From Nanobdellota archaeon (GTDB lineage Archaea; Nanobdellota; Nanobdellia; Pacearchaeales; GW2011-AR1), in assembly GCA_030647125.1 (NCBI GenBank), contig JAUSKC010000013.1:2249-66248 (forward strand): DNA of 64,000 nt, in the 5' to 3' direction. Of this stretch, positions 1-57,300 are shown piece after piece. The notes under the pieces are model-generated. The model did no database searches. It was not told the origin of the DNA and saw only the letters and a list, made by a program, of their open reading frames with translations. The translations under genes and the position numbers were made by a program. Numbering within the stretch: position 1 is the first letter of the stretch; each line of letters opens with the position of its first letter.

Positions 1-723
1 AAATTCGGCCGGTTCGATCCATACCAGCCAATTGCGCAGCAAATCGATCTTCCTCCAACTTTAATAAATCGTTTCGATATAATTTTTACTCTGCGTGACA
101 TTCCAGACGCATCAAAAGATGAAAGAATTGCTATGCATGTTTTGCGCGAGCACAAGTCCGATACAAAAACAACAGTTATTCCAGTGGAATTATTCAGAAA
201 ATACGTCGCGTATGCCAAGCAAAGAATAAAACCCGAACTTTCTGAAGAAGCAATTTTAGAATTAAAAAAATTTTATGTTGATTTAAGAAACGCGCCTGTT
301 TCATCAGAATCAGGAATGCGTCCAATTCCAATTTCAGCCCGTCAATTAAACGCTTTGATAAGAATGTCAGAAGCAATGGCAAAAATAAAGTTAAATAAAA
401 ACGTGTCGAAAGAAGACGCCAAAGTTTCTATAGAAATTATGAAATATTATCTTATGCAAGTTGGATACGATTACGAATCTAAGACATTCGACATAGACAG
501 ATTTACAACCTCGATGGCATCCTCTCAAAGGTCAAAGGTCTTTTTAGTGCGAGACATAATAACTTCATTGGAAGAAAAATTAGGAAAATTAATTCCGGTT
601 GAAGAAGTCGAAAATGCGCTTGATGGAAAAATGACAAAAGCCGAAATTGAAGAGGCATTAACAAAATTAAAATCATCTGGGGATGTCTTCAATCCGCGTA
701 GGGGCTACGTGCAGAAAACTTAA
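1..723 (+). CDS. mcm: MCM replicative helicase, C-terminal part (5' end outside window)
   Basis: Frame 1 is open from nt 1 (KFGRFDPYQPIAQQIDLPPTLINRFDIIFTLRDIP, the MCM AAA+ arginine-finger region). It runs into listed ORF 133..723 and ends at TAA 721-723. Confidence 0.85.
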   Translation, partial: KFGRFDPYQPIAQQIDLPPTLINRFDIIFTLRDIPDASKDERIAMHVLREHKSDTKTTVIPVELFRKYVAYAKQRIKPELSEEAILELKKFYVDLRNAPVSSESGMRPIPISARQLNALIRMSEAMAKIKLNKNVSKEDAKVSIEIMKYYLMQVGYDYESKTFDIDRFTTSMASSQRSKVFLVRDIITSLEEKLGKLIPVEEVENALDGKMTKAEIEEALTKLKSSGDVFNPRRGYVQKT

Positions 724-14162: not shown

Positions 14163-14528
14163 ATGGGAAAAGAAAAGTTCTGGGGGAAAACGGCATCTAT
14201 TGATCTTCATGGCTGCAATGATTTAATTAAAAATCCAGAAAAGATAAAGGAATTTGTAATTAAATTATGTAAAGAAATAGATATGGAACGTCACGGTGAC
14301 GTAATAATTGACAGATTTGGTGACGGTAAATTAGAAGGATGGTCGTGTTTGCAGTTTATAGAGACATCTTCAATAACTTGTCATTTTGACGAGCAAATGG
14401 GAGAAACAAACCGCGCTTTCATTGATATTTTTTCATGCAAGGACTTTGATGAAAACAAAGCAGTTCAATTCAGCAAGAGGTTCTTCGACGCAAAGAATTT
14501 CAAAATAAGATGTTTTATCAGGGATTAA
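14163..14528 (+). CDS. S-adenosylmethionine decarboxylase-like protein (SpeH family)
   Basis: IDLHGCN, FIETSSITCHFDE (compare ESHISIHTWPE) and DIFSCKDF (compare DVFTCG). The residue before the putative pyruvoyl Ser is Thr, not Glu. Confidence 0.5.
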   Translation: MGKEKFWGKTASIDLHGCNDLIKNPEKIKEFVIKLCKEIDMERHGDVIIDRFGDGKLEGWSCLQFIETSSITCHFDEQMGETNRAFIDIFSCKDFDENKAVQFSKRFFDAKNFKIRCFIRD

Positions 14529-15844
14529 ATCTTTTCAAACATCTCTGCAATCTTCAGCATCTTTTCATCTTCAAACTTATTGCACATAATTTGCATACCT
14601 ACAGGAATTCCTTTAATTTTCCCAGAAGGAATAGAAACAGCGCAACATCCTGCAAGATTAGCCGGAATAGTTAAAGCATCATAACTATACATTTCTTCAA
14701 CTGATATTCTTTCCCCAATTTTGTGAGGAAGTCGCGGCACCGTCGGCAAGATAATGCAATCAACACTTTCAAACGCTTTAGAAAATTCATCTCCAATAAT
14801 TTTCTTTACTTTTAATGCTGTATTATAATATCTTCCTTTATATTCCGCTTTGCTAATTTCCGAACCTCCAAGAACACGGCGCAAAACTTCAGGTCCAGCA
14901 GCTTCTTCAATCTTTTTTCCATAACGTCTTCCATCAAACTTACGTGTCCCTGAAAAAAATTCAACATAAACCAAAGGATAATACGTCTCAACAGCTAATT
15001 CAATATTTTTAATCTTAACTTTTTTAATTTCAAATCCATACTTTTTCCTTGCATCTTCAACTTTCTCATCAAATAATTTTCTTATCTCTGGTTCAACATT
15101 CAACCCGCTAATATCAAGAACCCCTACTTTAATTTTCTTGTTGGGGTGGGTGGTCGGGGAGTGGACGGAGGGATTGTTATCCATTATAGAATCCTTTTCA
15201 TCTTTTCCTTTAATTACTGAAAGCATTAAACCAGCGTCGGAAACGTCCGATGCCAAAGGCCCAATTTGATCCAAAGACATTGATAAATCAATTAACCCAT
15301 AACGTGAAACACTTCCATAAGAAGGCTTAAGTCCGACGACGCCGCAATGAGATGCAGGATTTCTAATTGAGCCGCCAGTATCACTTCCCAAAGATATATC
15401 AACAAATCCAGCAGCAACGGCAGCAGCGCTTCCCGAAGATGAACCCCCAGGAATTTTTCCGATAGCAGACGGATTTTGCACCGGTCCAAAAGCGGACGTC
15501 TCTCCAGAACCTCCGCTTGCAAACTCATCCATATTCAGCATTCCAATAATAAGCCCATCTTCTTTTTTTATTTTAGAAACAACAAAAGCGTCATACGGAG
15601 CAACATAATCCTCAAGAACTTTTGATGCGCATGAAATCTTCATCCCATGAACATTTATATTTGCCTTTATTCCAATAATTTTTCCTGCAAGTTTTCCGCC
15701 AACACCTTTTTTTATTCTTTCATCAATTCGCTTCGCTTCTTCAATTAATTCCTTTTCAGAACGCAACTCTAAAAATATATTTAACTTTTTATTTTCTTTT
15801 TTAATGAGTTCAAGTTTTTGCTGTAAGTTTTGTAACGTGCTCAT
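14525..15844 (-). CDS. gatA: Asp/Glu-tRNA amidotransferase subunit A
   Basis: Amidase signature GGSSSGSAAAVAAG and GSDTGGSIRNPAS. Confidence 0.9.
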   Translation of the reverse strand: MSTLQNLQQKLELIKKENKKLNIFLELRSEKELIEEAKRIDERIKKGVGGKLAGKIIGIKANINVHGMKISCASKVLEDYVAPYDAFVVSKIKKEDGLIIGMLNMDEFASGGSGETSAFGPVQNPSAIGKIPGGSSSGSAAAVAAGFVDISLGSDTGGSIRNPASHCGVVGLKPSYGSVSRYGLIDLSMSLDQIGPLASDVSDAGLMLSVIKGKDEKDSIMDNNPSVHSPTTHPNKKIKVGVLDISGLNVEPEIRKLFDEKVEDARKKYGFEIKKVKIKNIELAVETYYPLVYVEFFSGTRKFDGRRYGKKIEEAAGPEVLRRVLGGSEISKAEYKGRYYNTALKVKKIIGDEFSKAFESVDCIILPTVPRLPHKIGERISVEEMYSYDALTIPANLAGCCAVSIPSGKIKGIPVGMQIMCNKFEDEKMLKIAEMFEKI

Positions 15845-17891: not shown

Positions 17892-19280
17892 CTATTTCTT
17901 CGAACTCTTGGGCTTTGAATTCTTTTTCACAATCTCTATATGCGTTTCTTTCAGTTGAATCGGCTCAACTTCCGAAGGTGAACCGTCCATTGGATTTTGC
18001 GCGGCCTTATTTTTTGGAAATGCAATTACTTCTCTTATATCATTAAATCCTAACATCAATGCAACCAATCTGTCAAAACCTAAACCCATTCCGCCGTGAA
18101 CAGGCCCACCATATTCGTAAGCGTCAAGCAAAAAACCAAATTTCTTTCGTGCGGACTCTTTGCTCATCCCTATAATTTTCATAACTTTCTCTTGTAATTC
18201 AGGATTGTTAATTCGAATGCTTCCCGAACCAAGTTCAGTTCCATTAAGTACAAGGTCAAACAAATCCCCCAAAACTTTCCCTGGTTCTTTTTCTAAATAT
18301 TTTATATGTTCTTTTTTAGGCGAAGTGAAAATGTGATGTTCCGGCTCCCATTTTTTTTCATCTTTATTATAAGAAAACAATGGAAAATCAACAACCCAGC
18401 AAAATGCAAATTCTTTTGGATTGCTTTTGTCTTTTCTCAAGTCTGGCTTATCCGTTCCGTATTTTTTCTTTGCTTCTTCATGAGTTAGAATTTTAAAATC
18501 ACTAAGTTGAATTCCTAAAATCTTTTTAAAAATATGTTTATACAATCCCTCAACAAATCCTAAAATATCTTTCTGTTCAACAAAACTCATTTCCAAATCC
18601 ATTTGCGTATGTTCTGGCTGTCTGTCTGCCCTCAAATCTTCATCTCGCAAACAGCGCGCGAACTGATAATATTTGTCAAACCCCGCAATCATTAAAATTT
18701 GTTTATACAACTGCGGCGATTGAGGCAATGCATAAAACTTTCCTTCATTAACACGAGAAGGAACAATATAATCACGTGCGCCTTCCGGCGTCGGCTTAAC
18801 AAGCAAAGGCGTTTCAATTTCCAAGAAATCGTTCTCAATAAAATACTCTCTCGCTGCTTGAGCGACTTTAGCTCTGAATGCCAAATTTCTTTGCATCTCC
18901 GGCCTTCTTAAATCCAAGAAACGATATTTCATTCTTATATCATCCCCTGCAACTTCATTCTCATTAATTTTTATAGGTGGAACTTTCGCCTCGTTGATAA
19001 TCTCAATTTTCTCGGCAAAAACTTCAATTTCTCCCGTATGCAATTCCTTATTTTCAGTCCCTGGCTTTCTATTCTTAACTTCCCCAGAAACAGAAACAAC
19101 AAATTCATTCCTTAATCCGTGCTCACCCTTGAAAACAATCTGCATTTTCCCATACCTGTCACGCAAATCAATAAAACTAATTTTTCCATGCTCGCGAATA
19201 GTATCAACCCATCCACAAAGTTTAACTTTCTTCCCAACATCTTTTCGTGTCAGTTCTCCACAAGTATGCGTCCTTAACAT
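17892..19280 (-). CDS. aspS: aspartyl-tRNA synthetase, bacterial-type but lacking the GAD insertion
   Basis: MLRTHTCGEL start, class II motifs (FRDEDLRADRQPEHTQ-like; GGMGLGFDRL). YGTDKPDLR is followed after 12 aa by FCWVVDFPLF. Confidence 0.9.
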   Translation of the reverse strand: MLRTHTCGELTRKDVGKKVKLCGWVDTIREHGKISFIDLRDRYGKMQIVFKGEHGLRNEFVVSVSGEVKNRKPGTENKELHTGEIEVFAEKIEIINEAKVPPIKINENEVAGDDIRMKYRFLDLRRPEMQRNLAFRAKVAQAAREYFIENDFLEIETPLLVKPTPEGARDYIVPSRVNEGKFYALPQSPQLYKQILMIAGFDKYYQFARCLRDEDLRADRQPEHTQMDLEMSFVEQKDILGFVEGLYKHIFKKILGIQLSDFKILTHEEAKKKYGTDKPDLRKDKSNPKEFAFCWVVDFPLFSYNKDEKKWEPEHHIFTSPKKEHIKYLEKEPGKVLGDLFDLVLNGTELGSGSIRINNPELQEKVMKIIGMSKESARKKFGFLLDAYEYGGPVHGGMGLGFDRLVALMLGFNDIREVIAFPKNKAAQNPMDGSPSEVEPIQLKETHIEIVKKNSKPKSSKK

Positions 19281-19613: not shown

Positions 19614-20006
19614 ATGGTATATAGTTTGGAACTTCTTTCTACAGCAGTAAATGAAGGTTATATGCCAGATATAGAGGGGTTAGCTAAAAAAATTGATGAA
19701 CCAAAATTATCTATAGTGGGTTTAGATGAAGTATTAAAATTCATAGCAAATTATGAACCAATGTGGCATGAGGTGGGCAATCAAGATCTTGAAAGACAAT
19801 TAGAAACATTCAAAGGAAAACAACCATTATATTTAGATAGTGAACATACTCAAAGAAATCCTAATTTAAATCATTCGGATTATTTGTTTGTGTTTAAAGA
19901 GTTCATGAAAACATGGGCAGCACGTAAAAACAAAGGATCTCCAGAAGAGAATTGGTATCAAATGCAGGAAGAATTGGCAGATCTAATTTTTGAGAGTTAT
20001 AGATAA
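19614..20006 (+). CDS. hypothetical protein (130 aa)
   Basis: ORF only, with ordinary soluble composition. Confidence 0.4.
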   Translation: MVYSLELLSTAVNEGYMPDIEGLAKKIDEPKLSIVGLDEVLKFIANYEPMWHEVGNQDLERQLETFKGKQPLYLDSEHTQRNPNLNHSDYLFVFKEFMKTWAARKNKGSPEENWYQMQEELADLIFESYR

Positions 20007-20010
20007 ATAA

Positions 20011-20169
20011 TTATTTCAATAACTTTTCAATAATCTGCATCGCATCTTTCCCAGAAATCTTGCCTTTAAACTCTTTCATCACCAAACCCATATAAGCATT
20101 AGCATTCAATCCTGGCTTGCTCTTTATTATCTTATGAATTTTCTCTTCAACATATTCAGTATTAATCTT
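20011..20169 (-). other. gatE: in-frame continuation of gatE after an internal TAG (52 codons, GatB/YqeY-type tail)
   Basis: Same frame as gatE. It reads KINTEYVEEKIHKIIKSKPGLNANAYMGLVMKEFKGKISGKDAMQIIEKLLK then TAA 20011-20013, with no start codon or SD of its own at its 5' end. Confidence 0.7.
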
Positions 20170-21519
20170 CTAAATTTTTAATGCATCCTCCAAACTTTCA
20201 CCAGAAACAATTTTCTCAAAAACATTCCGAACATCGCTTTCCTCAAGTTTCCCTTCTCTAACTTTCTCCAAGACATCAGAAATAACTTCTTTACCAAATT
20301 TCTTTTCAACATCGAACTCGTTTAAATTTTCCCTCACAGCAATTTCCGTCGGAAGAACAAGCAAAACCTTGGCAACAAAATTTGCATTAGGATAAATCTT
20401 CATCAACTCTCCAAACTCTTTAACTTGATTTCTCTTGAAAAGCAATTTAATCATTTCCTCATTAAGTCCTTCCCGTCTTAAGTCCTCTTCAATTTCCACT
20501 TTTAATTTAGGCAACGTCTTCTTTGCTTCATTAATCAAATCCCTATGTATCTTTAACAAAGGTAAATCCGTTTCAGGATACATACGAGCAGCCCCGGGCA
20601 TTGGCCTTAAAAATTCACTCGTTCCGTCTGGCAAAGCGCGTCGCACTTCAGAAACAACTTTCATTTTTCCAAGAATTAATCTTTCTTGTCTTTCAATTTC
20701 TTTGTTAACAGTAGTAATCATCATTGAAGGATCTTGAAAACCTTTTATTTCAATTCGTGCGCCTTTTGAAATAGAAACATTAACATCTTGTCTTATAGTT
20801 CCAATTCCTCTTTTAACTTTACACGAACGTAAAATCTCTCCAATTTTTAGCGCAGCTTCACGAACTTGCGCAGCACTTTTCAAATCCGGCGCGGTAGCAA
20901 TTTCAACTAAAGGAATTCCCAATCTATCTAACCTATAACGCACTTCTTTCTCATTTTCAAAGATCTTTCGCGCAGAGTCCTCTTCCAAACAAATTGTGTC
21001 AATTCTAACTTTTCCTTCAGACGTTTCAATATAACCATCACGAGCAATTAAAACCGTCCTTTGAAATCCGGAAGTGTTAGAACCATCAACAACTGTCTTT
21101 CTCATAATTTGTGTCAATGTCTGTATCTCACAATTCAAAAGCAAAGCAATTTGCAACGCAATTTTGAGCGCCTCTTCATTAATTTGATACGGCGGCTCTT
21201 CATCTAATTCAACCAGCGACGTCGTTCCAGAATGAACTTCATAAACAAACTCTTTATCTAAAGAAACTTGATAGAGTGCAGCTTCATCAACTTCACCAGA
21301 TTCTCCAGCAACGGCATGAAGTTTTCTCCTTACAAGATAATTCGGCTCATCACTTCTCAAAATGGAAGGCGCACGAGAAAATAATTTATGAGTGTCAAGT
21401 TGCTGATGAATTTCTAGCCCTGCTTTAAAACCGAGATTTTTATAATCGAGGTTTTTTGCTGAAAAATCTTTTGATTTTTCTTGCTTAAAACCTAATTTAG
21501 TATAATCTTCTTTATCCAT
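20170..21519 (-). CDS. gatE: Glu-tRNA(Gln) amidotransferase subunit E (as terminated by TAG 20170-20172)
   Basis: GFKAGLEIHQQLDT, LDRLGIPLVEIAT and GTIRQDVNVSI motifs of the GatB/E family. Adjacent to gatD. Confidence 0.85.
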   Translation of the reverse strand: MDKEDYTKLGFKQEKSKDFSAKNLDYKNLGFKAGLEIHQQLDTHKLFSRAPSILRSDEPNYLVRRKLHAVAGESGEVDEAALYQVSLDKEFVYEVHSGTTSLVELDEEPPYQINEEALKIALQIALLLNCEIQTLTQIMRKTVVDGSNTSGFQRTVLIARDGYIETSEGKVRIDTICLEEDSARKIFENEKEVRYRLDRLGIPLVEIATAPDLKSAAQVREAALKIGEILRSCKVKRGIGTIRQDVNVSISKGARIEIKGFQDPSMMITTVNKEIERQERLILGKMKVVSEVRRALPDGTSEFLRPMPGAARMYPETDLPLLKIHRDLINEAKKTLPKLKVEIEEDLRREGLNEEMIKLLFKRNQVKEFGELMKIYPNANFVAKVLLVLPTEIAVRENLNEFDVEKKFGKEVISDVLEKVREGKLEESDVRNVFEKIVSGESLEDALKI

Positions 21520-21550: not shown

Positions 21551-22129
21551 TTACTTATGAGCATCTAACCCTAAATAAGTAACCAATCCGCCATTCTCTC
21601 CTCTAAAAAACTGTACATCATCAAAAAGTAAATGCATAGTAGATAATCCTAATCCTTGATTTTCAGGATAAGGTCGGGATTTATCAGAAAATTTATAAAA
21701 ACTTGTAATTAAAGGATAAGTCGATTGTCTAAACCTTAATATATACGGAACAAAGTCCTGATTAATTACTCCTCCTTCATCTCCAATAAGAAATAATGCA
21801 GAATCTTCAGAAATTTTGGAAGCAAGGAGAATTTTCTTAGTTTTATCTTTGTGATTTCCATGTTGGTATGCATTCCTTACAGCTTCATGAACTCCTGCAA
21901 GAATCTTTCGTGGAAATCTCTGATCTCTAAGCCCATCTCCAAATTGATAACTATGTGAATATAATCCTTTTTCAGAAGAGGGATAAAAAGATTTATCCTC
22001 AAAATCAGGTGAGATAACTATAGGTGGAATTTTAAGTTGTGATAAAATAACATCTTTAGTAAACATTTCTCTAACTAAAGAATTCCTAAAATCTAAATTC
22101 AAAAGTTCATTATCATGAATATGTCTCAT
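21551..22129 (-). CDS. GHKL/HATPase_c-like ATP-binding protein
   Basis: N-box HEAVRNAYQHGN, G1-like IGDEGGVI and G2-like NQGLGLSTM. No sensor or DHp domain is visible. Confidence 0.5.
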   Translation of the reverse strand: MRHIHDNELLNLDFRNSLVREMFTKDVILSQLKIPPIVISPDFEDKSFYPSSEKGLYSHSYQFGDGLRDQRFPRKILAGVHEAVRNAYQHGNHKDKTKKILLASKISEDSALFLIGDEGGVINQDFVPYILRFRQSTYPLITSFYKFSDKSRPYPENQGLGLSTMHLLFDDVQFFRGENGGLVTYLGLDAHK

Positions 22130-22218: not shown

Positions 22219-23502
22219 TCACCCTTCAAGCATTTTATTAAACTCATGAGCAAAGTTATGAAGCATTTTCTCTTTTACAACTTCTTTGCTTTTTGCCCAC
22301 TCACTATGCCCTAAAATCCATCCTAATTTTACCAAGGCCGCTTCACTCAACATGTCTTCAAGGTAAATTATTCCTGTCTCCAAAAGTTCTCTTCCATTAC
22401 TATATACTAAAGGATCAACTCGGCCGTTAATGCACTGTGATGTCGCACAAACCACAATTTTTTTCTGAACTTCTTTTAACTTTTTAGTCCATCCATGTCT
22501 TGCTCTTGATGTAGGCGCGTGACCAAGACCAGACATTTCAAGAACTAAGCCTTTGTAACCATTTTTAACATAATAATCTAGGACGTTGGCCTCTTGTCCA
22601 GGATAAATTTTCAAAAGCCCAACTTTCTCTTCAAATTTATTATCAACCTTAACTTTGCTATTATTTCTCCTATTAAAATTACTCATAATTTCAATTCCAT
22701 CTTGAGTAACTTTAGCAAATGGTTTCCCGTTAACAACTTTAAAGGCGTCCCTTCTTGAAGTATGCAACTTTCTTACTTTAGTTCCAGGCATAGCATAACA
22801 AAATTCATCACTTTCATTTGCATGTCCAACAAGCATAACTTCAGCAATCTCAGAAGTTGCAGCAACCGCAGCGCATACTAAATTTAAATTAGCGTCGCTG
22901 CTAGCACGATCAATTGACCTTTGTGAATAAGTTAATACAACTGGCTTGTTTAACTTCCCTAAGAAAAAACTCAAGGCCGCGGAAGTATAATGCAAAAAGT
23001 CAGTCCCGTGAGTAATAATAACTCCTTGAATATTTGTATCATTTAATAATTCAGAAACAACTTTAGCAATTTTTTGCCAGTCCTTGTAATCCATGTCTTC
23101 TGAGGCCTTCATAAACGGTCGCTCCAAACGAAGAACGTTCACTTTATCAAAGATTCCTGGATAATATTTAAATAAACTTTCAGGTGTGTCAAGCCAATCA
23201 ACTCCTCCTTTCTTCGGATTTAAGCGAGCTGCAATTGTTCCTCCAGTAATTACCATAGCAATATTTGGCTTTCCACTTGACTTTTTCAATTCAACTTTTT
23301 CTTCAGCATCGCGCGCTTTTTCAACAAGTTTAATCTCCAAAATTTCTTTTCTCGGAAAGCCAATATTATACCCATTTCCAAGCTTAAGCAAAACAATATT
23401 CTTGTCAGACTCGGGCGATTCAATCAAAGTCCCTTCATAAATTTCTTTAACGAAGTGAATTTCAACTTCGTCCCCTGCCTTAATTCCAGAATCAATTTTC
23501 AT
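22219..23502 (-). CDS. gatD: Glu-tRNA(Gln) amidotransferase subunit D
   Basis: Asparaginase-type AMVITGGTIAA and ITHGTD motifs. The start was set at ATG 23500-23502 (MKIDSGIKAGDEV); the listed ORF extends to 23538. Confidence 0.88.
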   Translation of the reverse strand: MKIDSGIKAGDEVEIHFVKEIYEGTLIESPESDKNIVLLKLGNGYNIGFPRKEILEIKLVEKARDAEEKVELKKSSGKPNIAMVITGGTIAARLNPKKGGVDWLDTPESLFKYYPGIFDKVNVLRLERPFMKASEDMDYKDWQKIAKVVSELLNDTNIQGVIITHGTDFLHYTSAALSFFLGKLNKPVVLTYSQRSIDRASSDANLNLVCAAVAATSEIAEVMLVGHANESDEFCYAMPGTKVRKLHTSRRDAFKVVNGKPFAKVTQDGIEIMSNFNRRNNSKVKVDNKFEEKVGLLKIYPGQEANVLDYYVKNGYKGLVLEMSGLGHAPTSRARHGWTKKLKEVQKKIVVCATSQCINGRVDPLVYSNGRELLETGIIYLEDMLSEAALVKLGWILGHSEWAKSKEVVKEKMLHNFAHEFNKMLEG

Positions 23503-23642
23503 ATCCAAAACAAAAATTCCAACTATAAAAAGTTTCATCTTTAATGTTTCTTCAATATTTCTTCAATGCCAAATCAGAATAGTTACTCCGTGTAAGTAAC
23601 TACAATAGAAACATTTATAAATGCCTAAAACGGGAAATAAAC

Positions 23643-24028: not shown

Positions 24029-25384
24029 ATGGTTAAGATTGGTTTGGAAATTCACGGTTATCTTGAAACAAAAGAAAAATTATTCTGTTCGTGTGTTGCC
24101 GAGCACGGAGCAAAATTCTCAAAACCAAATACAAACATATGTCCAATATGTACCGGACAACCCGGAAGCAAACCAATGTTACCAAACGCGGCAGCAATAG
24201 ACAAAGCAATTCAAATTGCATTAATTTTAAACTGCAAAATAAATGAAAAATTAATCTGGCAAAGAAAACATTACTCTTGGCCTGATCTGCCAAAAGGTTA
24301 TCAAAATACTTTATCCGGTCCTCATGCATTCCCTATAGGTATTAACGGAAAATTTGAAGGAATAAAAATTACTGAAGTTCATCTTGAAGAAGACCCTGCT
24401 GCTTGGAATCCAAAAACTGGAGAAATCGATTACAATCGTTCCGGCTCTCCATTAATAGAAATTGTTACAGAACCTGACTTCACATCCTCATCACAAGTTG
24501 TTGAATGGTTGATAACTCTAAAATCAACTTTGTCTTACATAAAAGCTTTGGACCGTTCTTCCGGACTAAAAGCAGATGTAAACGTTTCCATAAGCGGCGG
24601 AGCAAGAGTTGAAATAAAGAATGTAAATTCTATTTCAAACATAAAAACCGCTATAGAGCATGAACTCGCGCGTCAAGAACGTTCTCTTCCAAAAAAACAA
24701 GAAACACGCGCATTTAATGAGTTAGACAACACTACGACCCACATGCGTTTTAAAGAAGAAGCAGAGGATTATCGTTTCATTTCAGATCCCGACTTGCCTA
24801 TAATAAAAATAGATTCTAAAACAATAAAAAGAATAAAAGAAAATCTTCCAGAGACACCAAAAGAAAAATTAAACAAATTAATAAAAAAATACAAGATACC
24901 AAAGGACTCAACAGAGGTTTTGACAAAGAATTTGGACATGGTTGAATTATTTGAAATCGTCTCCTCCCGTATTTCACCACAACTGGCCTTAAATTGGATA
25001 ACCATAGAACTTCAAAGGGTTTTAAATTACAATAAGAAACTTTTGGATGAAGTTGAAATTATCCCCGAACATATTATAGAACTTTTAGAGTTAGTTCAAA
25101 CTAAGAAAATAACTGAATTAAAAGCAAAAGAAATCTTGAATAAGTTCGTCCCAAAATCCTTTTCACCACTTTCAGAAGCAACAAAAAACGCTACAATTTC
25201 AGATGAGAAAGAAATAGAAAAGATTGCATTAAAAGTAATTTCCGAAAACAAAAAAGCTGTTAATGATTACAAAGCAGGCGAAGAAAAAGCAATTAATTTC
25301 TTAATAGGCCAAGTCATGCGCATCTCAAACAAGCGCGCGGACTTTGCAACAGCAAAAAGAATTCTAGAAAAGAACTTAAAATAA
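24029..25384 (+). CDS. gatB: Asp/Glu-tRNA amidotransferase subunit B
   Basis: KIGLEIHGYL, CPICTGQPGSKP, DVNVSI and the C-terminal YqeY-type tail FLIGQVMRISNKRAD. Confidence 0.9.
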   Translation: MVKIGLEIHGYLETKEKLFCSCVAEHGAKFSKPNTNICPICTGQPGSKPMLPNAAAIDKAIQIALILNCKINEKLIWQRKHYSWPDLPKGYQNTLSGPHAFPIGINGKFEGIKITEVHLEEDPAAWNPKTGEIDYNRSGSPLIEIVTEPDFTSSSQVVEWLITLKSTLSYIKALDRSSGLKADVNVSISGGARVEIKNVNSISNIKTAIEHELARQERSLPKKQETRAFNELDNTTTHMRFKEEAEDYRFISDPDLPIIKIDSKTIKRIKENLPETPKEKLNKLIKKYKIPKDSTEVLTKNLDMVELFEIVSSRISPQLALNWITIELQRVLNYNKKLLDEVEIIPEHIIELLELVQTKKITELKAKEILNKFVPKSFSPLSEATKNATISDEKEIEKIALKVISENKKAVNDYKAGEEKAINFLIGQVMRISNKRADFATAKRILEKNLK

Positions 25385-30393: not shown

Positions 30394-31437
30394 TCAAATC
30401 CCTTTTTCAATTCTCTCTCTAAATAATTCTAAATCCTCCAAGCGCACTTTCGCCCCGACGGCATCTTCATGCCCTCCCCCAGTTGCGCCTTCTAATCCAT
30501 CAATCGCTTTAAGAATAACCTTCTTAACGTTTTTCCCTCGAACAGAAATATTTGCTTTAATTCCTGTAACATAAACAACAATAACTATTTTTTCTGGAAA
30601 CAAGTACATTAATTCATTTGACAAATCAGAACTTATGCTCAAATCCCCTCCATACTGGAAAAACAAAATCTTATTTTCTTTATTGTAAACCTCTTTTGCT
30701 TTTTCAATTAATTTTCTATAACGCACCTCAATTTGGTCGAACTTGCTATGCATAGAATAATTTTTATTATTTGATTCTAGAACATCTCCCGGACTTCGCG
30801 CTTTCATAAGATATTTTATCATTGAAACAACATTTGTCGTGCTGTCTTTCAAGCCAAAATTAAAAATTCGCGCAACTCTTCCAATTTCAGTGGTGTAAAA
30901 AACTTCAAAAGCATTTTTTGTCTTAACTCCCAATTCAGGGAAGTTCTTTAAAAAATCCTTGTAAAAGGAAGGCATATAACTGTCAGAAATGCACCCTACA
31001 ACCGCAATCCACAAGTCCTCTTTTCTTGTTTTTTTAACAACTTGCCAGCACAAAGCCGTCGTCGGTTCAGAACTCTTTTTCTTGTTCAAAACTGGATTAT
31101 AATAATGCACAAATTCAGGAACAACAGAATCAACATCATGATGATCAATCCACACAACAGGGATATTAACTTTTTCAACTTCATCAAAAAATTCCTTTGA
31201 CACAAGCGGCTTATCAAGAATAAAAATATAATCAGCTTTTAATTCCACAACTCTCCTAAAATAATCCTTAGACATTTCCGGGAACGAACGAACTGGAACT
31301 CCCTTGCCTCTTCCTAAAAACCTTTGCAGCAGCAAAAAAGCGCTTAGTCCATCCGCATCATTGTCAAAAAAGAAAACTGGATTTTGCGCTTTGGCCAAAT
31401 GCCCGTTAATTTCATCAACTTGTTTTTTCGTTAACAT
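30394..31437 (-). CDS. stand-alone DHH/DHHA1 phosphoesterase (NrnA/Pde2-like)
   Basis: FFFDNDADG (motif I), WIDHHD (DHH) and ATGGGHEDAVGA (DHHA1 GGGH). The start overlaps the disA stop as TAATG. Confidence 0.8.
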   Translation of the reverse strand: MLTKKQVDEINGHLAKAQNPVFFFDNDADGLSAFLLLQRFLGRGKGVPVRSFPEMSKDYFRRVVELKADYIFILDKPLVSKEFFDEVEKVNIPVVWIDHHDVDSVVPEFVHYYNPVLNKKKSSEPTTALCWQVVKKTRKEDLWIAVVGCISDSYMPSFYKDFLKNFPELGVKTKNAFEVFYTTEIGRVARIFNFGLKDSTTNVVSMIKYLMKARSPGDVLESNNKNYSMHSKFDQIEVRYRKLIEKAKEVYNKENKILFFQYGGDLSISSDLSNELMYLFPEKIVIVVYVTGIKANISVRGKNVKKVILKAIDGLEGATGGGHEDAVGAKVRLEDLELFRERIEKGI

Positions 31438-32540
31438 TATATCTTCTTACCAACCATAATCTTTTCTTTCAAGCTGTTAATCTCTTTATTGAAAAATTCA
31501 ACCATCTCTTCGCTTCCAAAGATTTCCAAAAGCTCGTCGTTATCAGCTGCTAGAGTTCTGTCAAGCGTTTTGAACTTTGAAATTAAAGCGGTTGTATATC
31601 GCTCAAGCAAATTTGTTCTCCCCAAGATTCTCAAGCCCGAAGGACTGACTGATTCGTCATGCAGCTCTTCAAAAAGCATTCGTGAAATATTATTACTCTC
31701 GAGCAGAAAATCAAAATTAAATTTATCTAAAGTATTCGCCTTATTATTCCATTCATTTCCAAAATAATCTTTTAAAAGAATTTCCTCCTCTTTTCCTAAA
31801 TTTCCTGTCAATTCTTTAAGTCGCATACTTACAATCATCCCTTCCTTTCCAAGTTCAATCAAATATCTTTTTACAATTTCAGAAATTCTTTTTATAATTT
31901 CAAGTCGCTGCAAAACATTCGAAACATCTTCTATAGTTACCAACCCATTAATTTCAAGAATGTTAAAATTAGACATTAAATCATTAAAAGTCTCCCTTTG
32001 TTTTTCCAGAATTTGCAACGTCTCAGCCGCTCTTCTTAAAATTTCAGAGCTGTGATCAAGTTCATATTTCATATCACTATAATACAAAGAAATTTTATTT
32101 TTTCTTTCAGAGACAGCAATTACAATTGTTTTTGCTTTCTTCGCGGTCCTTTCAGCCGCCTTATGCCGCGTTCCCGTCTCTCTCGTCGGAATGTCAACTC
32201 CAGGGAAAAGCAAGGTATTTCCAAATAAAATTCTTTTTCCGTCATTGCTTAAAATTATTGCCCCATCCATCTTGCACAATTCAACCAACTTTTGCGCGCT
32301 GAATTTTGAATTTATTTTAAAACCCCCATCTGCAAGATCAAGAACATTTCCATTGTCAAAGACAATCAGCGCACCCATTCTTGCTCTTAACAAATCATCC
32401 AACCCCGTCCTTAATGAAGTTCCTGGCGCGAACATCTTAAGCACGTCGACAAAGTCCTTTTCTTTTTCAAAATTCTTAAGAGGATTCTCTGTAACAACAA
32501 TCTCCTGCACCTCTTTAATATCAGAATTATTTTCTTCCAT
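31437..32540 (-). CDS. disA: DisA-type diadenylate cyclase (DNA integrity scanning protein)
   Basis: GALIVF, ELCKMDGAIILSNDGKRIL and TRETGTRHKAAERTAKKAKTIVIAVSERKNKISLY, nearly colinear with bacterial DisA. Size 367 aa. Confidence 0.85.
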   Translation of the reverse strand: MEENNSDIKEVQEIVVTENPLKNFEKEKDFVDVLKMFAPGTSLRTGLDDLLRARMGALIVFDNGNVLDLADGGFKINSKFSAQKLVELCKMDGAIILSNDGKRILFGNTLLFPGVDIPTRETGTRHKAAERTAKKAKTIVIAVSERKNKISLYYSDMKYELDHSSEILRRAAETLQILEKQRETFNDLMSNFNILEINGLVTIEDVSNVLQRLEIIKRISEIVKRYLIELGKEGMIVSMRLKELTGNLGKEEEILLKDYFGNEWNNKANTLDKFNFDFLLESNNISRMLFEELHDESVSPSGLRILGRTNLLERYTTALISKFKTLDRTLAADNDELLEIFGSEEMVEFFNKEINSLKEKIMVGKKI

Positions 32541-37760: not shown

Positions 37761-39548
37761 ATGATAACTCGTCAAGAATTAATAAAGAAATATATTGAAT
37801 TTTTTAAGCATAAAGGGCATAAGCACATCCCTTCTGCATCGCTTATTCCTGAAAATGACCCTACAGTTTTATTCACAACAGCAGGAATGCACCCTTTAGT
37901 TCCTTTTCTTTTAGGACAATCACATCCTTTGGGAAAACGCCTTGTATCAGTTCAAAAATGTATCAGAACAGGCGACATTGAAGAAGTAGGGGACAAAGTT
38001 CATCACACTTTTTTTGAAATGTTGGGCAACTGGTCTTTAGGGGATTATTTTAAAGAAGACGCAATAAAATTCTCTTTCGAGTTCCTGACAAAAGAACTAA
38101 AAATTCCTTTAGAAAAATTAGCAGTAACTTGCTTTGTTGGAGATAAAAACGCAGGAAAAGATATTGAGTCCTCAAAAATCTGGAAATCTCTAGGAATCAA
38201 AGATGAAAGAATTGCTTTCTTGCCTAAAGAAAAAAATTGGTGGGGTCCCGCTGGCTTAACAGGCCCGTGTGGTCCTGATACAGAAATGTTTTATTGGAAG
38301 TCCAAAACAAAAAAAGTTCCAAAGGTCTTCAATCCTGAAGATGAAAATTGGGTTGAAATTTGGAATGATGTTTTTATGCAATACAACAAAAACAAATCCG
38401 GAAAGTACGAGCCATTAAAACAAAAAAATGTTGATACTGGAATGGGAGTTGAAAGAACTTTAACAATCTTAAATGAATTGGAAGACAATTATCAAAGTTC
38501 AATCTTCAAACCAATAATTTCTGAAATTGAAAAGATATCAAAAAAGAAATACAAATCATCAGATTCTGACGACGATAAGTCAATGAGAATTGTAGCAGAC
38601 CATATTAGAACAGCAACATTTATACTTGGAGAAGAAAAACACCTAACGCCTTCTAACACCGACCAAGGTTACGTTTTAAGAAGATTAATCCGAAGAGCAA
38701 TCCGTTTTGGAAGACAACTTGGCATAAAAGAAAATTTCACTTCACAAATTTCAAAAATAATAGTTCATGAATATACAGACTATCCAGAATTAGCAAGAAA
38801 TCACAAGTCAATAACTTCCGCACTTGATGAAGAAGAATTGCGTTTCCTTGAAACGCTTGAAAAAGGCCTAAAAAAGTTTAACCAATTTGTAGAGGAATTC
38901 AAAAAAATAATTCCCGGAAAAGAAGCTTTCTTATTATTTCAGTCATACGGATTTCCAATTGAAATGACTCAAGAACTAGCCGATGAAAAAGGAATTGAAG
39001 TCGACTTGGAAGAATATAATGAAGAATTCAAGAAACATCAAGATCTATCACGAACAATGTCCGCCGGCCGTTTCAAATCCGGACTTGCTGACGATTCAGA
39101 GGCAACTAAAAAACTTCACACTGCAACACACTTGCTAAATGAAGCGCTAAGACAAGTTCTAAAAGATAACAACATAAAACAGCGCGGTTCTAACATAACT
39201 CCAGAACGTTTGCGTTTTGACTTTAACTTTTCAAGAAAATTAACAGATGACGAACTAAAAAAAGTTGAGCAATGGGTAAATGACAAAATAAAAAAATCTC
39301 TTCCAGTAACAAGAGAAGAAATTCCTTTGACACAAGCAATGGCATCAGGAGCACAATCAGAATTCGGCTCAAAATATCCTGAACTAGTGTCTGTTTACAC
39401 AATAGGAAATCCAAAATCATTTATTTCAAAAGAAATCTGCACAGGCCCCCACGTTTCAAACACTTCAGAAATTGGGAATTTCAGAATAATAAAAGAAGAA
39501 TCCAGCGCAGCTGGAATCCGTCGTATCAAAGCAGTTATAAGTAATTAA
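37761..39548 (+). CDS. alaS: alanyl-tRNA synthetase, short form (catalytic plus editing domains, no C-Ala domain)
   Basis: FTTAGMHPLVPF, QKCIRTGDIEEVGD..HHTFFEMLGNWS and editing-site HTATHLL. 595 aa. Confidence 0.9.
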   Translation: MITRQELIKKYIEFFKHKGHKHIPSASLIPENDPTVLFTTAGMHPLVPFLLGQSHPLGKRLVSVQKCIRTGDIEEVGDKVHHTFFEMLGNWSLGDYFKEDAIKFSFEFLTKELKIPLEKLAVTCFVGDKNAGKDIESSKIWKSLGIKDERIAFLPKEKNWWGPAGLTGPCGPDTEMFYWKSKTKKVPKVFNPEDENWVEIWNDVFMQYNKNKSGKYEPLKQKNVDTGMGVERTLTILNELEDNYQSSIFKPIISEIEKISKKKYKSSDSDDDKSMRIVADHIRTATFILGEEKHLTPSNTDQGYVLRRLIRRAIRFGRQLGIKENFTSQISKIIVHEYTDYPELARNHKSITSALDEEELRFLETLEKGLKKFNQFVEEFKKIIPGKEAFLLFQSYGFPIEMTQELADEKGIEVDLEEYNEEFKKHQDLSRTMSAGRFKSGLADDSEATKKLHTATHLLNEALRQVLKDNNIKQRGSNITPERLRFDFNFSRKLTDDELKKVEQWVNDKIKKSLPVTREEIPLTQAMASGAQSEFGSKYPELVSVYTIGNPKSFISKEICTGPHVSNTSEIGNFRIIKEESSAAGIRRIKAVISN

Positions 39549-40009: not shown

Positions 40010-43000
40010 TCATTCCAAATAAATCCCCGGCTTGCCCGGCTTAACTTTTTTGCTTTTTCCGTCCGGATCATATTTATCTTTATCATTAACAGCATAAACT
40101 TTTATATCAAGACCTGTTCGTTTTTTCAACTCATCAACGCTATCAACAAAATTCTTCTTTTCGTTAGGCAAAACATAAACCCAACATTTTGAAACTTCTT
40201 TTCCTTCCCGTTCTTTTATAATTTTAACAACGTGATTTATATCTTCAACAAGCTTTGCAACATCTTGCTCTTGCTTTTCCAAACTCTCATTAATCTTCGC
40301 TTCTTCAACTTTAGGCCATTCAGATGAAGAAATCAGACCAACACCTCCTATTTTCTCCCACATTTCTTCAGCTATGTGCGGGCAAAAAAGAGACAAAAGT
40401 TTCAAACCCTTTTCCAAAACTAATCTATCAGTTTCCAGAGGCAAAGAATTAAACAATTCCCTGACTTTTATAATTGCTAAGTTATATTTGAAATTTTCAA
40501 TCTGGTTCGTCATTTCTTTAATAATCTTATTCAATTTGCTTTCAATTTTAGCGTCTGATTTCTTAACAATCTTAACATTTTGAAAATAATCATAAACTTT
40601 ATTCAAGAATTTGAAGCTTCCAACAAGAACATTCTCATCCCAAAGAGTATCATTTTCAGGAGAAGCCAAACTCATTAAAGCCAAACGCAAAGAGTCCGCG
40701 CCATACTTCTTAATAATATCCAAAGGATTAATCACATTACCTAACGACTTTGACATCTTCTGCCCATCAGCGCCATGCAAAAGCCCTTGATTAAACAATT
40801 TAATAAACGGCTCATCAATTTCAGGAATCAAATCTAAATCCCTCAAGGCCTTTGTAAAAAAACGCGCGTAAATCAAATGCATCGTCGCATGTTCCGCGCC
40901 TCCAATATATTGATCAACAGGCATCCAGTATTTTACTTTATCAATTTCAAAAGGTTTTTTTGAATTTTCCGAGTCCAGATATCTCAAATAATACCAACTC
41001 GAATCAAAGAAAGTATCCATCGTGTCCGTCTCTCGTTTGGCTTTTCCATTACATGAAGGACATTTTACATTAATCCATTTTTCATTTGTTTTCAAAGGAT
41101 TTCCTTTTCCAAATTTAACTTTTTCAGGAAGAACAATAGGCAAGTCACTTTCTTTAATAGGAATAATTCCACACTTATCACAATAAACAACTGGAATAGG
41201 AGTTCCCCAATAACGCTGACGTGAAACCAACCAATCTCTTAATTTAAAATTAACAACCTTGCGTCCTAATTTTTTCTTTATTAAAAATTTAGTAATTTCT
41301 TCTTTAGCTTTTTCACTTTCCACTTCATCAAATTCATCCGAATTAATTAACCATCCTTCTCCAGTATAAGCTTTCGACTCTTTTGTAAAATCAATTTCTC
41401 CTTCCCTTGGCTGAATCACTGCCTTAATTTCAATATTGTATTTTCTTGCAAACAAATAATCCCTTTGGTCGTGAGCAGGCACAGCCATAACCATTCCACT
41501 CCCATAATCAGCGACGACAAAATTGCCGGCATAAACCGGAACTTTTTTATTATTTACAGGGTTTACAGCATAACTTCCTGTAAAGACACCTTCTTTGTCA
41601 AGTTCTTCAAGTTGTTTTTCAGAAACGCCTTTTAATTTTTTCAAGAATTTTTCTACTTCTTTCTTTTGTTTGTTAGAAACTAATTCCATAAGTCGCGGAT
41701 GCTGCGCTGAAACAACCATAAAAGTCACTCCGTAAATAGTATCTGGCCTTGTCGTAAATATAGACCACTTTTCATTTCCAATAATTTCATTTAAAAGTTC
41801 AGGAAATTCTCCTGTTCCCATATCATATATAGTATAATGCCCATGATTTTTTAATTCAATAATTTCGCCGCCCAAAGAATCATGAAAGATCTTAACGCTT
41901 TTCTTACCATCGGCTTCCTCATTATTTGCAGTAAAAATAATTACTTCACCAACTCTATCTTTAATTCCCAAGTCAATATTATAATCATAAAAATCTTTTG
42001 GAGCATTACCAGATTTAGCAATTTTCCAAGGTGCGACTAAAATTAGTTTTTTAATTTTCTTTTTAGTATCACCAAGCCATCTTACTAAAAATGCACAGCC
42101 GCAACTATGTCCAATTAAAACAGAATTCTCATCTATTTTATTTTTTTCGAATTCTTTCTTCCAATTATAATAATCAGCTTTCCAGGCCTCGGGCATTAAA
42201 GGAGAAAAAACCTTAATCTTTCTTTCCTCAAGTTTCTTTTTAATCCAAGGAATCCAATGTTTATCATAAGTTCTTTTTTCTTGAGAATACTCCGCTTTTT
42301 CAGCAGACGGACAACCATGAACAATCACAACATTAGAAAGTTTATTTGAATTTTCAATCTCAAACAAAATCTCCGTCCCTTCCGAACGTCCAATCCAATT
42401 CTTCTGCATCAACTTAATTCTTTCAGGCCAATATAACTTGTCAACCTTATCCAAAAGCTCGTCAGCATAATTTGTCGTTTTGATAAACCATTGTTCAAGT
42501 TGCTTGATTTCAACAGGTGTTTCAGGATGTCTCCAGCAACAACCACCATGAACTTGCTCATTCGCTAAAACCGTCTCACATTTACCACACCAATTAACCG
42601 GCGACTTTTTTCTATAAATTAAACCTTTTTCATAAAGTTTAAGAAAAAAATATTGATTCCATTTATAATATTCCGGCTTTGACGTCACAATCATTTTACT
42701 CCAATCGTAACTCAATCCTAACTTATGCTGTTGATTTACAAAATTTTTTATAGAATTTTCAGTGTACTTTCTAGGATGTTCCCCTGCTTTTATCGCCGCA
42801 TTTTCAGCAGGCAATCCAAAAGCATCGTAACCCATTGGATAAAGAACATTCATCCCTTGCATTCTCTTGAAGCGCGCATAAATATCCCCTATAGTATAAT
42901 TCAAAGCATGGCCCATATGCAGTCCAGCTGCCGATGGATACGGAAACATTTCAAGAACATAAAACTTCTTTTTCTTTTTCGTGCCTGCGGCGTCCGGGGA

Positions 43001-43072
43001 TACTTCAAAGACCTTCTTTTTTTCCCACTTACTCTGCCATTTTGTTTCTATCTTTTTAAAATCATAAACCAT
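40010..43072 (-). CDS. leuS: leucyl-tRNA synthetase, bacterial-type, with a nested alpha/beta-hydrolase domain
   Basis: HMGH (aa 52-55), WIGRSEG (aa 226-232), TTRPDT (aa 440-445), MAVPAHDQRD and KMSKS. 1020 aa. Confidence 0.9.
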   Translation of the reverse strand: MVYDFKKIETKWQSKWEKKKVFEVSPDAAGTKKKKKFYVLEMFPYPSAAGLHMGHALNYTIGDIYARFKRMQGMNVLYPMGYDAFGLPAENAAIKAGEHPRKYTENSIKNFVNQQHKLGLSYDWSKMIVTSKPEYYKWNQYFFLKLYEKGLIYRKKSPVNWCGKCETVLANEQVHGGCCWRHPETPVEIKQLEQWFIKTTNYADELLDKVDKLYWPERIKLMQKNWIGRSEGTEILFEIENSNKLSNVVIVHGCPSAEKAEYSQEKRTYDKHWIPWIKKKLEERKIKVFSPLMPEAWKADYYNWKKEFEKNKIDENSVLIGHSCGCAFLVRWLGDTKKKIKKLILVAPWKIAKSGNAPKDFYDYNIDLGIKDRVGEVIIFTANNEEADGKKSVKIFHDSLGGEIIELKNHGHYTIYDMGTGEFPELLNEIIGNEKWSIFTTRPDTIYGVTFMVVSAQHPRLMELVSNKQKKEVEKFLKKLKGVSEKQLEELDKEGVFTGSYAVNPVNNKKVPVYAGNFVVADYGSGMVMAVPAHDQRDYLFARKYNIEIKAVIQPREGEIDFTKESKAYTGEGWLINSDEFDEVESEKAKEEITKFLIKKKLGRKVVNFKLRDWLVSRQRYWGTPIPVVYCDKCGIIPIKESDLPIVLPEKVKFGKGNPLKTNEKWINVKCPSCNGKAKRETDTMDTFFDSSWYYLRYLDSENSKKPFEIDKVKYWMPVDQYIGGAEHATMHLIYARFFTKALRDLDLIPEIDEPFIKLFNQGLLHGADGQKMSKSLGNVINPLDIIKKYGADSLRLALMSLASPENDTLWDENVLVGSFKFLNKVYDYFQNVKIVKKSDAKIESKLNKIIKEMTNQIENFKYNLAIIKVRELFNSLPLETDRLVLEKGLKLLSLFCPHIAEEMWEKIGGVGLISSSEWPKVEEAKINESLEKQEQDVAKLVEDINHVVKIIKEREGKEVSKCWVYVLPNEKKNFVDSVDELKKRTGLDIKVYAVNDKDKYDPDGKSKKVKPGKPGIYLE
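41768..42340 (-). other. RBBP9/YdeN-type serine hydrolase domain inserted in LeuRS (aa ~245-435)
   Basis: VVIVHG..HWIPWIKKKL..VLIGHSCGC (GxSxG, Ser codon 42104-42106)..LILVAPW..NHGHY, colinear with B. subtilis YdeN as I recall it. Confidence 0.7.
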
Positions 43073-54390: not shown

Positions 54391-57300
54391 CTAAACTATT
54401 TGGGTAACCGAATTCGTTGCACTAGAACTATACTCATTATAATACTTAATAACATTAGGGACATGAGTACTTTTTGCACGGATTAACTTTTCTTCCTTAA
54501 CCTTCCCATTTAAATTTTGTACACATTGATCATAATTAATAAAAGTTCCACCAACTTTACAATTACTAACAACAACAGAAGGACCGACATTGTAAGCTAA
54601 AGCCAAAATTCTTGGATTAGTTATTTGATAATTACTCCTTAAACAAGAAACATAACAAGTTCCAACTAAAATATTTCTCCTGTTAGCAATTCCATTAATA
54701 TCAGTCGTACTAGCAAATTGTGAAAGCAATTGCGCTCTGCTCGTAGACAAAGTAGAATAACCTATATTACTCAAATCAGCCGAACATGAAGGAACACAAA
54801 TCCCATCGATAGAATGAGTATTAAGATTAACAAAATCACTTAACATGCCATCTTCTTTTGCAGGAGTCAACTGCATTAAACCGATATCAGGAGTGCTTGC
54901 TGGATTCCAATCACTCTCTTGTGTTATTAAGGCCCTCACAAAATTTGCATTAACATTATATTTACCAGTTACTTCAATAACATAACTTGTCAAAGCGCTT
55001 TCAACATCACTATTGCTCGTAGAAATACGAACATTCTGACTATCAGAACTTAAAACATCATAATTTAAATTAATGCTATCAAAACTTGAAGTAGTTGCAG
55101 TTACTCCTCCACTAGTTCCTGTTTCAGTCGTCGTTCCGCTCGTCTGCGAATTAACAATCATATCAACAACTCCAAGCAAATCAGAATTTGTAACACTTGA
55201 ACTAAAAGTATTAGAAGTAACAGGAATATCTTTCAAATTCTCCCCATCATCAACTTTCCAGACCCCATCATAATAAAAATGATAACTTGTTGAACCGGAA
55301 GTCGCGCTAAAATAAAAGTCCCCTATGCCCAAACTTTGCGAACTTACAATTATATTTGCAATAGATTGTTTATTTTCATTAGTTAAACCAACAAAAGGAT
55401 CAGAAAATGTTCCACTTCCCGTAGTCGACACACCGCCGCCAACTTGATTTGTACTTAGTATGGTCTGTTGTGAAATAGCTTTATTATTTTCATCCTCAAA
55501 ATCCTGCGTCGCCAAAATTCCATAAGCTACTGCTCTCAAGAACAATATCTGTACCTTATTTGTATCCAACAACGATTGAGAAATTAAATTCTCAGTAATG
55601 TAACTTATTTTTTCAGCCGGACTCATTGCATTAATTTTATTCAATTCCATGTTTATATCAAATGAACTCGTCTGACCCAAAGCATTTATAACACTCGAAG
55701 ATAAACCTTGCAATGTATCGTTCTCAATTCCTATTCCTTTAATTGCTTGCTTAACGCTTTGCGTATCAATATAACAATTTAATCCTGCCGTCCCGCAACT
55801 TCCAACTTGAACCCAACGAGCATTTGCCCCTCCATCCAAAGGATCAGTTCCTTTTCCTGGGCTTGAAGTAGAACACACACGAACAATTCCTTGATTGTAC
55901 AATTGCGGATTCAAAACTTGATTCGCGCCTTCTTGAACATTTGGCTGAACTAAACTATAAACACTCGGCGTTCCTGAAACACACTCTTGTTCAGTTTTTA
56001 CTGTCTGCGTCGCTTGCTCTTTCAAATACTGATCATTCAAATAATTCAAAGCAAATGAAGTTGTAACTTTTTGGAAGCCGCAATCATCTTTTCCGTTGAC
56101 AGAAATACACATCTGTTGATATCCTGTCGGAGCAAGAATATCTTTTGTTTCTGATGCCGAGCCGCCACGTTTAATATAACCAGAATCAACAACTAAAAGT
56201 TGATTTGTCTGGTAATAAGAGCTTCCAACTGGCGCCTTCAAGTAAACTTGGAAATAAGCACCTTGATCATTTCCAGAATAAATATGATAAAAGACCTTAT
56301 ACTGCGAAGTTGAAGGCACTGTAGCCGTTGTGTAAGGAATTTCGCTGAACCATCCTTGATATTGATTTGGTGAATCAGGAGCAAGCAAGTTATCTAAGAA
56401 TTTTCCACTATTAGGGTAATTTGCCGACGCGAACGCCTTACAAACTGTGCTTCCAACTTCATTTGTCGACCTAGCTTGGAACGCCTTATACGATTGAGCT
56501 CCATAATAATTAACCATATAATCAATTGAATTCTGCGCATTTGTCCAAGCACTTTGAATTCCTAAATATTCTCCACCGCCATGCGACGTCTTTCCTGAAA
56601 CAACTTCCAAAAGTTTCGGAACTAAAAGATTTGCAACTGGAATTGATTGTCTCCACAAAAATTCACACATATAAATACTATTAATCTCGTCACAAATTCC
56701 AACAGTTCTCCCAGTATCTAAATTATCTTGCAAACACATTTGATAATCTTTCATTACAGAAATTAAATCATCAACTCCTGCTTTAACTCCAGTTAAACAA
56801 ATAGGAACTTTAACTTCCGGGAAATTAGGCAAGCAAAGAGCGACACTTCCTATAATTCCGGATTGAATAACATTATCAACATGGTACGAACCACCTAAAT
56901 CACATCTTGAAGATGGACAAATTACCGGGTCGCAAACATTAAATAATAAATTACAATTTGCAGGACTCATGAAATCAGTGCATTCAATATCCGGAACATT
57001 TGTAGCTGGATTTCCAACTTTAATTGTCTGTCCGTTAATAACAACTTGAGTTACTCCTGCCTTGTATTGTCTGCTAGCTTGAGTAATTGCATTTATCGCT
57101 TGCCTTACTAAACTTTGAGTTTGCCCTTCAGTAAGCCCTGGGAAAGATCCGTAAATCGCTCCAGTTCCAGGATTAAATTCTGTGCAAGTGTCATCGCCAA
57201 ATCCTGAATCAGCTTGTGCTCTCCCATTAGCACCAACATTACAAAGCAAGAAACTTGCAGGAGCTCCTGATTGATCATACGTCGCTGTAGCTCCTCCAAC

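Follow-up and report, generated by a model that had tools for sequence, protein, structure and literature searches.

In the 64-kb stretch of DPANN archaeal DNA analyzed here (referred to as the window), the gene encoding GatE, subunit E of the Glu-tRNA(Gln) amidotransferase GatDE, was found to be interrupted by an in-frame TAG, and comparison with homologous proteins identifies the 52 codons beyond this stop as the true end of GatE. As deduced from the alignment with the closest relatives, the lesion is one G-to-T transversion at the first position of the Glu codon GAG. The short-form DPANN gatE thus carries either an assembly error or a nonsense lesion of the ordinary single-base kind, both of which belong to a known category. 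The TAG site is not a recoding signal, gatE is not deliberately split, and nothing in the feature points to a novel genetic code or an undescribed mechanism of recoding. We infer a real, young nonsense allele with normal termination at the TAG, a proposal in which belief and doubt are about equally balanced. The coordinates of the features discussed are summarized in Table 1.

Table 1. Coordinates of gatE, its interrupted tail and further genes of the window.
Feature	Position	Strand	Evidence
gatE as annotated	20170..21519	-	ORF list; 449 codons, then premature TAG
In-frame TAG	20170..20172	-	Corresponds to Glu-450 of the joined protein; GAG in closest relatives
52 sense codons of the GatE YqeY-like tail, last three helices	20014..20169	-	Pfam on tail alone, orthologues
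TAA, ancestral gatE stop	20011..20013	-	Aligned with TAA of contigs L001 and L002
gatD, GatE partner, intact	22219..23538	-	Pfam GatD_N, Asparaginase, Asparaginase_C; NCBIfam GatD equivalog, 420.6 bits
gatB (GatCAB subunit B), intact YqeY tail	24029..25384	+	Pfam GatB_N and GatB_Yqey; NCBIfam GatB, 443.5 bits
Amidase-family gene, probable gatA	14525..15844	-	Pfam Amidase, 401 bits
aspS, TAG-terminated control	17892..19280	-	L001, L003 and L014 orthologues have their TAG at this position as well

The gatE ORF starts with ATG at position 21519 and ends with ...SLEDALKI, followed by the TAG (20172..20170). In the same frame, the sequence continues as KINTEYVEEKIHKIIKSKPGLNANAYMGLVMKEFKGKISGKDAMQIIEKLLK, comprising 52 codons, before TAA is reached at 20013..20011. 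Both the gatE coordinates and the tail peptide given in the preceding sequence-only reading were exact, as judged by the ORF list and the translation. The annotated portion encodes the GatB_N cradle (catalytic) domain and the helical domain, but only the first half of the YqeY-like tail. An open extension of at least 52 codons after the stop was observed for 10 of the 60 ORFs of the window (G+C content of 34%), and the chance of 52 open codons was estimated from the stop-codon frequency at approximately 0.04. The extension alone is therefore unremarkable in this window, and the case for the gatE tail rests on homology. Within the tail, in-frame starts first occur at codon 21 (TTG) and codon 27 (ATG); since no start precedes codon 21, the whole tail cannot be made independently, in agreement with the earlier claim that it lacks a start at its 5' end.

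Profile searches assigned both parts of the frame to the same protein. The Pfam domain GatB_N (PF02934) was detected in gatE with 189 bits at residues 32-329, and the tail alone matched positions 108-148 of the 148 positions of the Pfam GatB_Yqey profile (E 3.5e-4) as well as the Pfam YqeY family. In the joined protein, the GatB_Yqey match spans the TAG (residues 369-501, profile positions 3-148). Furthermore, the joined protein scored above the cutoffs of the two GatE equivalog models, with 497.7 bits versus 456 for NCBIfam NF003107 and 443 bits versus 319.6 for TIGR00134, whereas the GatB models reached at most 166 bits and stayed under their cutoffs. Alignment of the joined protein to 2D6F_C (M. 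thermautotrophicus GatE) covered residues 1-260 with an E-value of 1e-74, and the alignment of the tail reached residue 611, covering the region of the GXXAXGX motif. Compared with the tail of the closest orthologue, 45 of 52 residues are identical. An uninterrupted C-terminal YqeY-like domain is absent in the window gatE (TAG at codon 450) and present in all 52 aligned orthologues. The assignment of the downstream frame to the conserved GatB/GatE YqeY-type tail is thus borne out by Pfam and the orthologue alignment. The likeness to the tail of the window's own GatB, which had been offered in its support, is in the correct register (NAYMGLVMKEF... versus NFLIGQVMRIS..., 10 of 29 identical) but weak when taken alone (E 0.11).

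Like other archaeal GatE proteins (subunit of GatDE; PDB 2D6F, 1ZQ1), the window protein possesses the cradle, the helical domain and the YqeY-like tail, and gatD is located nearby, two genes upstream of gatE. In contrast to canonical archaeal GatE, the window protein and its DPANN orthologues lack the AspRS-like insertion, and the tail is cut by TAG in the window genome only. The window GatE and all DPANN orthologues of approximately 480 aa represent a short form without this insertion domain: matches to the GatE models and to 2D6F_C fall in two stretches, skipping the AspRS-like insertion (approximately residues 261-386 of 2D6F_C). Modelling cited in PMC2330236 suggests that docking of ND-AspRS is prevented by the AspRS-like domain of GatE. 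Moreover, the window GatE and the orthologues P0001 and P0010 feature an N-terminal extension of approximately 20 residues (window 21424-21519 (-), GatE residues 1-32), which resembles a duplicated true N-terminus (DYTKLGFK... and then DYKNLGFKAG); in the AlphaFold2 model of P0001, the pLDDT values of residues 1-21 are below 50.

Homologues of GatE number in the thousands, the best 120 of which are 474-549 aa in length, and the best homologues originate from MAGs named Nanoarchaeota, Pacearchaeota or Woesearchaeota (DPANN archaea). GatE was found to be continuous through the site in 19 of 19 and then in 52 of 52 aligned orthologues (474-501 aa); the residue under the TAG is Glu in 14 of the 19, the remaining sequences having Asp or Lys. 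The closest relative, P0001 (501 aa, 92% identity), is encoded on the Hainich groundwater contigs L001 and L002. In the DNA alignment, the window TAG corresponds to GAG in L001, L002 and L003, the last being the GTDB representative 'Nanoarchaeota archaeon H32-bin101_1', a 93% relative with E at this position. No indel is located nearby, and the next relative, L014, has GAT at the site. As GAG is present in the closest relatives where the window has TAG, the difference amounts to one G-to-T change. The sequence-only reading had proposed to look in related genomes for a sense codon at this position, which is what they contain (GAG in the nearest two, GAT in the next), and for orthologues ending at the TAG; none of them do, and the downstream frame is conserved.

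The consequences of a stop at this position were considered on an AlphaFold2 model of P0001 (mean pLDDT 86.7). Residue E449 of P0001, equivalent to the TAG site, is predicted to lie in a loop (447-452), which is preceded by a short helix (442-446) and followed by three C-terminal helices (453-466, 472-483 and 489-500). According to this model, termination at the TAG would remove these three helices, with which the tail contacts the tRNA. The YqeY-like tail of GatB and GatE was placed at the tRNA D-loop, and C-terminal deletion of GatB abolishes tRNA binding (PMC2811023, PMC2330236). Because loss of the GatB tail has this effect, the 449-aa GatE would, by analogy, probably be inactive or badly impaired in Glu-tRNA(Gln) transamidation. 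Archaea generally need GatDE for Gln-tRNA(Gln), as restated in PMC3655853 and PMC2943598, so that strong selection against a disabling allele would be expected; this speaks for an error or for a functional bypass.

Selection on the tail was evaluated by means of dN/dS values (Nei-Gojobori) for the window versus L001. For the body of the gene (449 codons), dN/dS was 0.10 at a dS of 0.50, and for the tail it was 0.067, based on 17 synonymous and 10 non-synonymous differences. In a binomial comparison, neutrality of the tail over the entire window branch was rejected (p = 2e-4), and so was neutrality for at least 40% of the branch (p < 0.05), while fractions of up to 30% were compatible with the data. 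Furthermore, the window retains the common residue in each of the 14 tail columns that do not vary among 19 orthologues. Polarisation by an outgroup placed five tail changes on the window branch (two synonymous and three non-synonymous), which are too few to use. Judged by these comparisons, the tail is a sequence that was under purifying selection until recently, and its low dN/dS together with the retained invariant residues point to a young lesion. Such preservation of the tail would be expected alike from a young mutation, from an error and from continued translation. The one-base change and the undecayed tail support the earlier alternative of a very recent nonsense mutation or a sequencing error.

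For the favoured reading, the following course is proposed. A single G-to-T substitution would have converted GAG to TAG in the loop before the last three helices of the GatE tail, and the change would be real in the sampled population and very young. The TAG would be read as a normal stop, so that the main product would be a 449-residue GatE devoid of the tRNA-elbow helix bundle, and only unprogrammed near-cognate read-through could yield traces of full-length GatE. Within the syntenic stretch of approximately 20 kb, no gene other than gatE is broken or differs in length from its orthologues, and the assembly therefore looks clean. Isolated in-frame stops with low dN/dS are reported to be widespread in prokaryotes (PMC7918605). 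The isolated nonsense codons described by Belinky et al. 2021 (PMC7918605), which comprise young pseudogenes, polymorphisms or annotation artefacts, share with the window a single stop in an otherwise intact conserved gene, flanking dN/dS values well below 1 and a stop one base away from the ancestral sense codon. In contrast to those cases, the window stop occurs in one MAG only and in no relative; since it is unconserved, there is no evolutionary evidence of tolerance or read-through. Against a real allele, GatDE is expected to be essential, which favours an error or a bypass, and a single assembly carries the TAG.

Instead of a real allele, the TAG may represent a consensus error or a minor variant captured in the MAG, in which case the real gatE would carry GAG and encode an intact 502-residue GatE; this explanation is a serious possibility that nevertheless stops short of being probable. 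The deviation from the ancestral GAG by one base, the tail without any decay and the expected essentiality of gatE are all in line with it. The change also lengthened a T run (ATT-GAG to ATT-TAG) in an A/T-rich low-complexity stretch. Furthermore, the TAG-bearing sequence is known from one assembly only, namely the NCBI source MAG (MDO8467654.1). Searches of the contig index, the JGI metagenomes, the GTDB representatives and the protein collection revealed no further assembly of the population. The contig index has no entry for the exact 449-aa product, the JGI metagenomes lack the junction DNA pattern, a search with a conserved 35-mer retrieved the Hainich relative alone, the GTDB representatives contain only a 93% relative, and a junction-only protein search yielded nothing above 69% identity. 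A 449-aa member of the cluster of P0001 was considered as an independent copy and rejected, as it is the window's own protein. On the other hand, substitution errors in a consensus are uncommon, which counts against this explanation, and gene lengths match those of the orthologues elsewhere in the syntenic 20 kb. In L020, a Hainich groundwater contig with a coverage of 3, gatE likewise carries a stray in-frame stop, which is a different one and lies near the contig end (positions 1-378 (+); ...SGV*FVFPKDIA...); low-coverage assemblies of these organisms thus do contain stray stops.

Efficient or programmed read-through of the TAG, by which full-length GatE would be made in useful amounts, is improbable. 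Decoding would then fall to a suppressor tRNA, to a tRNA of the Pyl type or to a near-cognate one such as Gln-tRNA(CUG). The perfect preservation of the tail at low dN/dS and the presumed essentiality of gatE would agree with read-through, and in-frame stops under purifying selection were interpreted in this way for prokaryotes (PMC7918605). However, a young lesion explains the preservation equally well, and the TAG is not conserved, with GAG present in the sister genomes and GAT in the outgroup. Screening of the 64-kb window by means of ARAGORN and Rfam revealed eight ordinary tRNAs, none of them with a CUA anticodon, and nothing further in Rfam; pyl genes were likewise absent among the window proteins (Pfam). 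The RNA 3' of the TAG has a minimum free energy of -14 kcal/mol versus a shuffle mean of -17.8 (z +1.38). It folds less well than its shuffles, the fold is not shared with L001, and no stimulatory structure was detected at this place. Archaeal read-through contexts are poorly defined, and context alone is no guide. Moreover, TAG terminates conserved genes of the window at their orthologous ends, as detailed below. The read-through option raised in the sequence-only reading was thus pursued for suppressor or Pyl tRNAs, TAG conservation and RNA structure, with negative outcomes for all three within the 64-kb window and the relatives. Pyrrolysine-type UAG decoding resembles the present case in the in-frame UAG inside a conserved archaeal gene, but the window UAG is unconserved, acts as a normal terminator elsewhere and is not followed by a structure, and tRNA-Pyl and the pyl genes are absent from the window. 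Low-level near-cognate read-through of the gatE TAG is possible. That the TAG is fixed and GatE nevertheless functional, either by near-cognate read-through only or because the short-form GatE tolerates the loss of three helices, is very unlikely.

A true split gene, whose tail would be translated separately and joined non-covalently as in Nanoarchaeum equitans, is hardly credible for the window. A precedent exists in the same broad group of small-genome archaea: for N. equitans (NEQ 245-396) and Nst1, the same protein is recognised as split, being encoded in two pieces (PMC3655853, Table 1). In N. equitans, the pieces bear non-adjacent gene numbers, whereas those of the window are contiguous and in frame, with exactly one codon, the stop, between them. 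Presumably, each GatE piece of N. equitans has its own start codon, which the second piece in the window lacks; initiation at the internal TTG or ATG would give only 32 or 26 residues, respectively, with the first of the three helices lost. In addition, gatE is unsplit in the nearest relatives. Recurrent tail splitting, as might be suggested by short database entries covering the GatE tail only, was rejected, as these entries are fragments located at contig ends.

The usage of TAG as a terminator was examined for 60 non-overlapping ORFs of at least 90 aa, which end in TAA (39), TGA (12) or TAG (9). For aspS, the orthologues share both the position and the TAG (Table 1). The TAG of proS is located at the orthologous end, where L014 has TGA, and the ProRS C-terminus (...SKSY) coincides with the last position of the ProRS-C_1 profile. 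Likewise, the MBL hydrolase gene has its TAG at the orthologous end, where L014 features TAA. The gatE gene is the only one whose syntenic orthologues run on, by 53 codons. In a six-frame scan treating each stop in turn as sense, reading TAG as sense joined no other conserved protein in the window. Two TGA-separated pairs, namely LeuRS and a 147-aa ORF as well as the DHH phosphoesterase and a 147-aa ORF, were inspected as interrupted genes and rejected, each consisting of a complete gene and an unrelated ORF. On the basis of these gene ends, TAG is a real terminator in this lineage, which upholds the earlier statement that it terminates normally and that reassignment is unlikely. Genome-wide reassignment of TAG to a sense codon, for which the gatE site alone speaks, deserves practically no credence and is refuted for the window by the gene-end comparison, given the nine TAG-terminated ORFs, the aspS, proS and MBL hydrolase ends and the absence of any other joined protein.

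The gene content of the window is archaeal, including MCM, aIF2-beta, TFB, TFE, S8e, S3Ae, tRNA-splicing endonuclease and deoxyhypusine synthase. Between gatD and gatE, different genomes harbor different genes: in the window (21551-22129 (-)), it encodes a 192-aa HATPase_c_2-like protein, and in the relatives, the interval harbors genes for Fic-domain proteins (L001 9189-9962; L014 8966-9964). An additional gene for a 130-aa protein without Pfam match (19614-20006 (+)) converges on the gatE end and is absent in the relatives. Among the aminoacyl-tRNA synthetases, LeuRS (1020 aa, 40010-43072 (-)) contains a serine-hydrolase or alpha/beta-hydrolase domain (PF06821, E 1.2e-12, residues 270-426), which follows the first part of the catalytic core (11-227), precedes the CP1 editing domain (433-597) and is an unusual domain insertion for such an enzyme. 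AlaRS (37761-39548 (+), 595 aa) consists of the catalytic domain and a tRNA_SAD domain ending at residue 589 and appears to be devoid of the usual C-terminal region. Furthermore, a DisA-type diadenylate cyclase gene (31437-32540 (-); DAC and DisA-linker) is directly followed by a DHH/DHHA1 phosphoesterase gene (30394-31437 (-)); in this DPANN archaeon, the two look like a pair of genes for the synthesis and breakdown of c-di-AMP. A 2039-aa protein (54391-62387 (-) region) showed a weak SLT (lytic transglycosylase) match near its C-terminus only, and its gene overlaps by 4 bases with that of a 626-aa protein without Pfam match; both look like giant proteins of no assigned function.

The main value of the finding is an annotation correction. 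The 449-aa product is 100% identical to the NCBI entry MDO8467654.1, the record of the window's own source, which is annotated as a normal, intact GatE without any pseudogene or interrupted-gene flag. This entry is a truncated or interrupted gene without the last 52 residues of the tRNA-binding tail, and metabolic reconstructions of the source genome should flag gatE. If the TAG is real, the organism would represent a natural knock-down of the GatDE tail in the presence of gatB, which belongs to a paralogous amidotransferase, and an amidase-family gatA candidate. As a natural experiment of modest scale, it would bear on the ability of archaeal GatCAB, or of read-through, to compensate for GatDE. 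If functional GatE were obtained by near-cognate read-through only, the expression of an essential translation enzyme would be low and coupled to itself, as Gln-tRNA(CUG), an example of such a near-cognate tRNA, is itself a product of GatDE. If, instead, loss of the last three tail helices were tolerated, tRNA recognition by the short form would differ from that of canonical GatDE.
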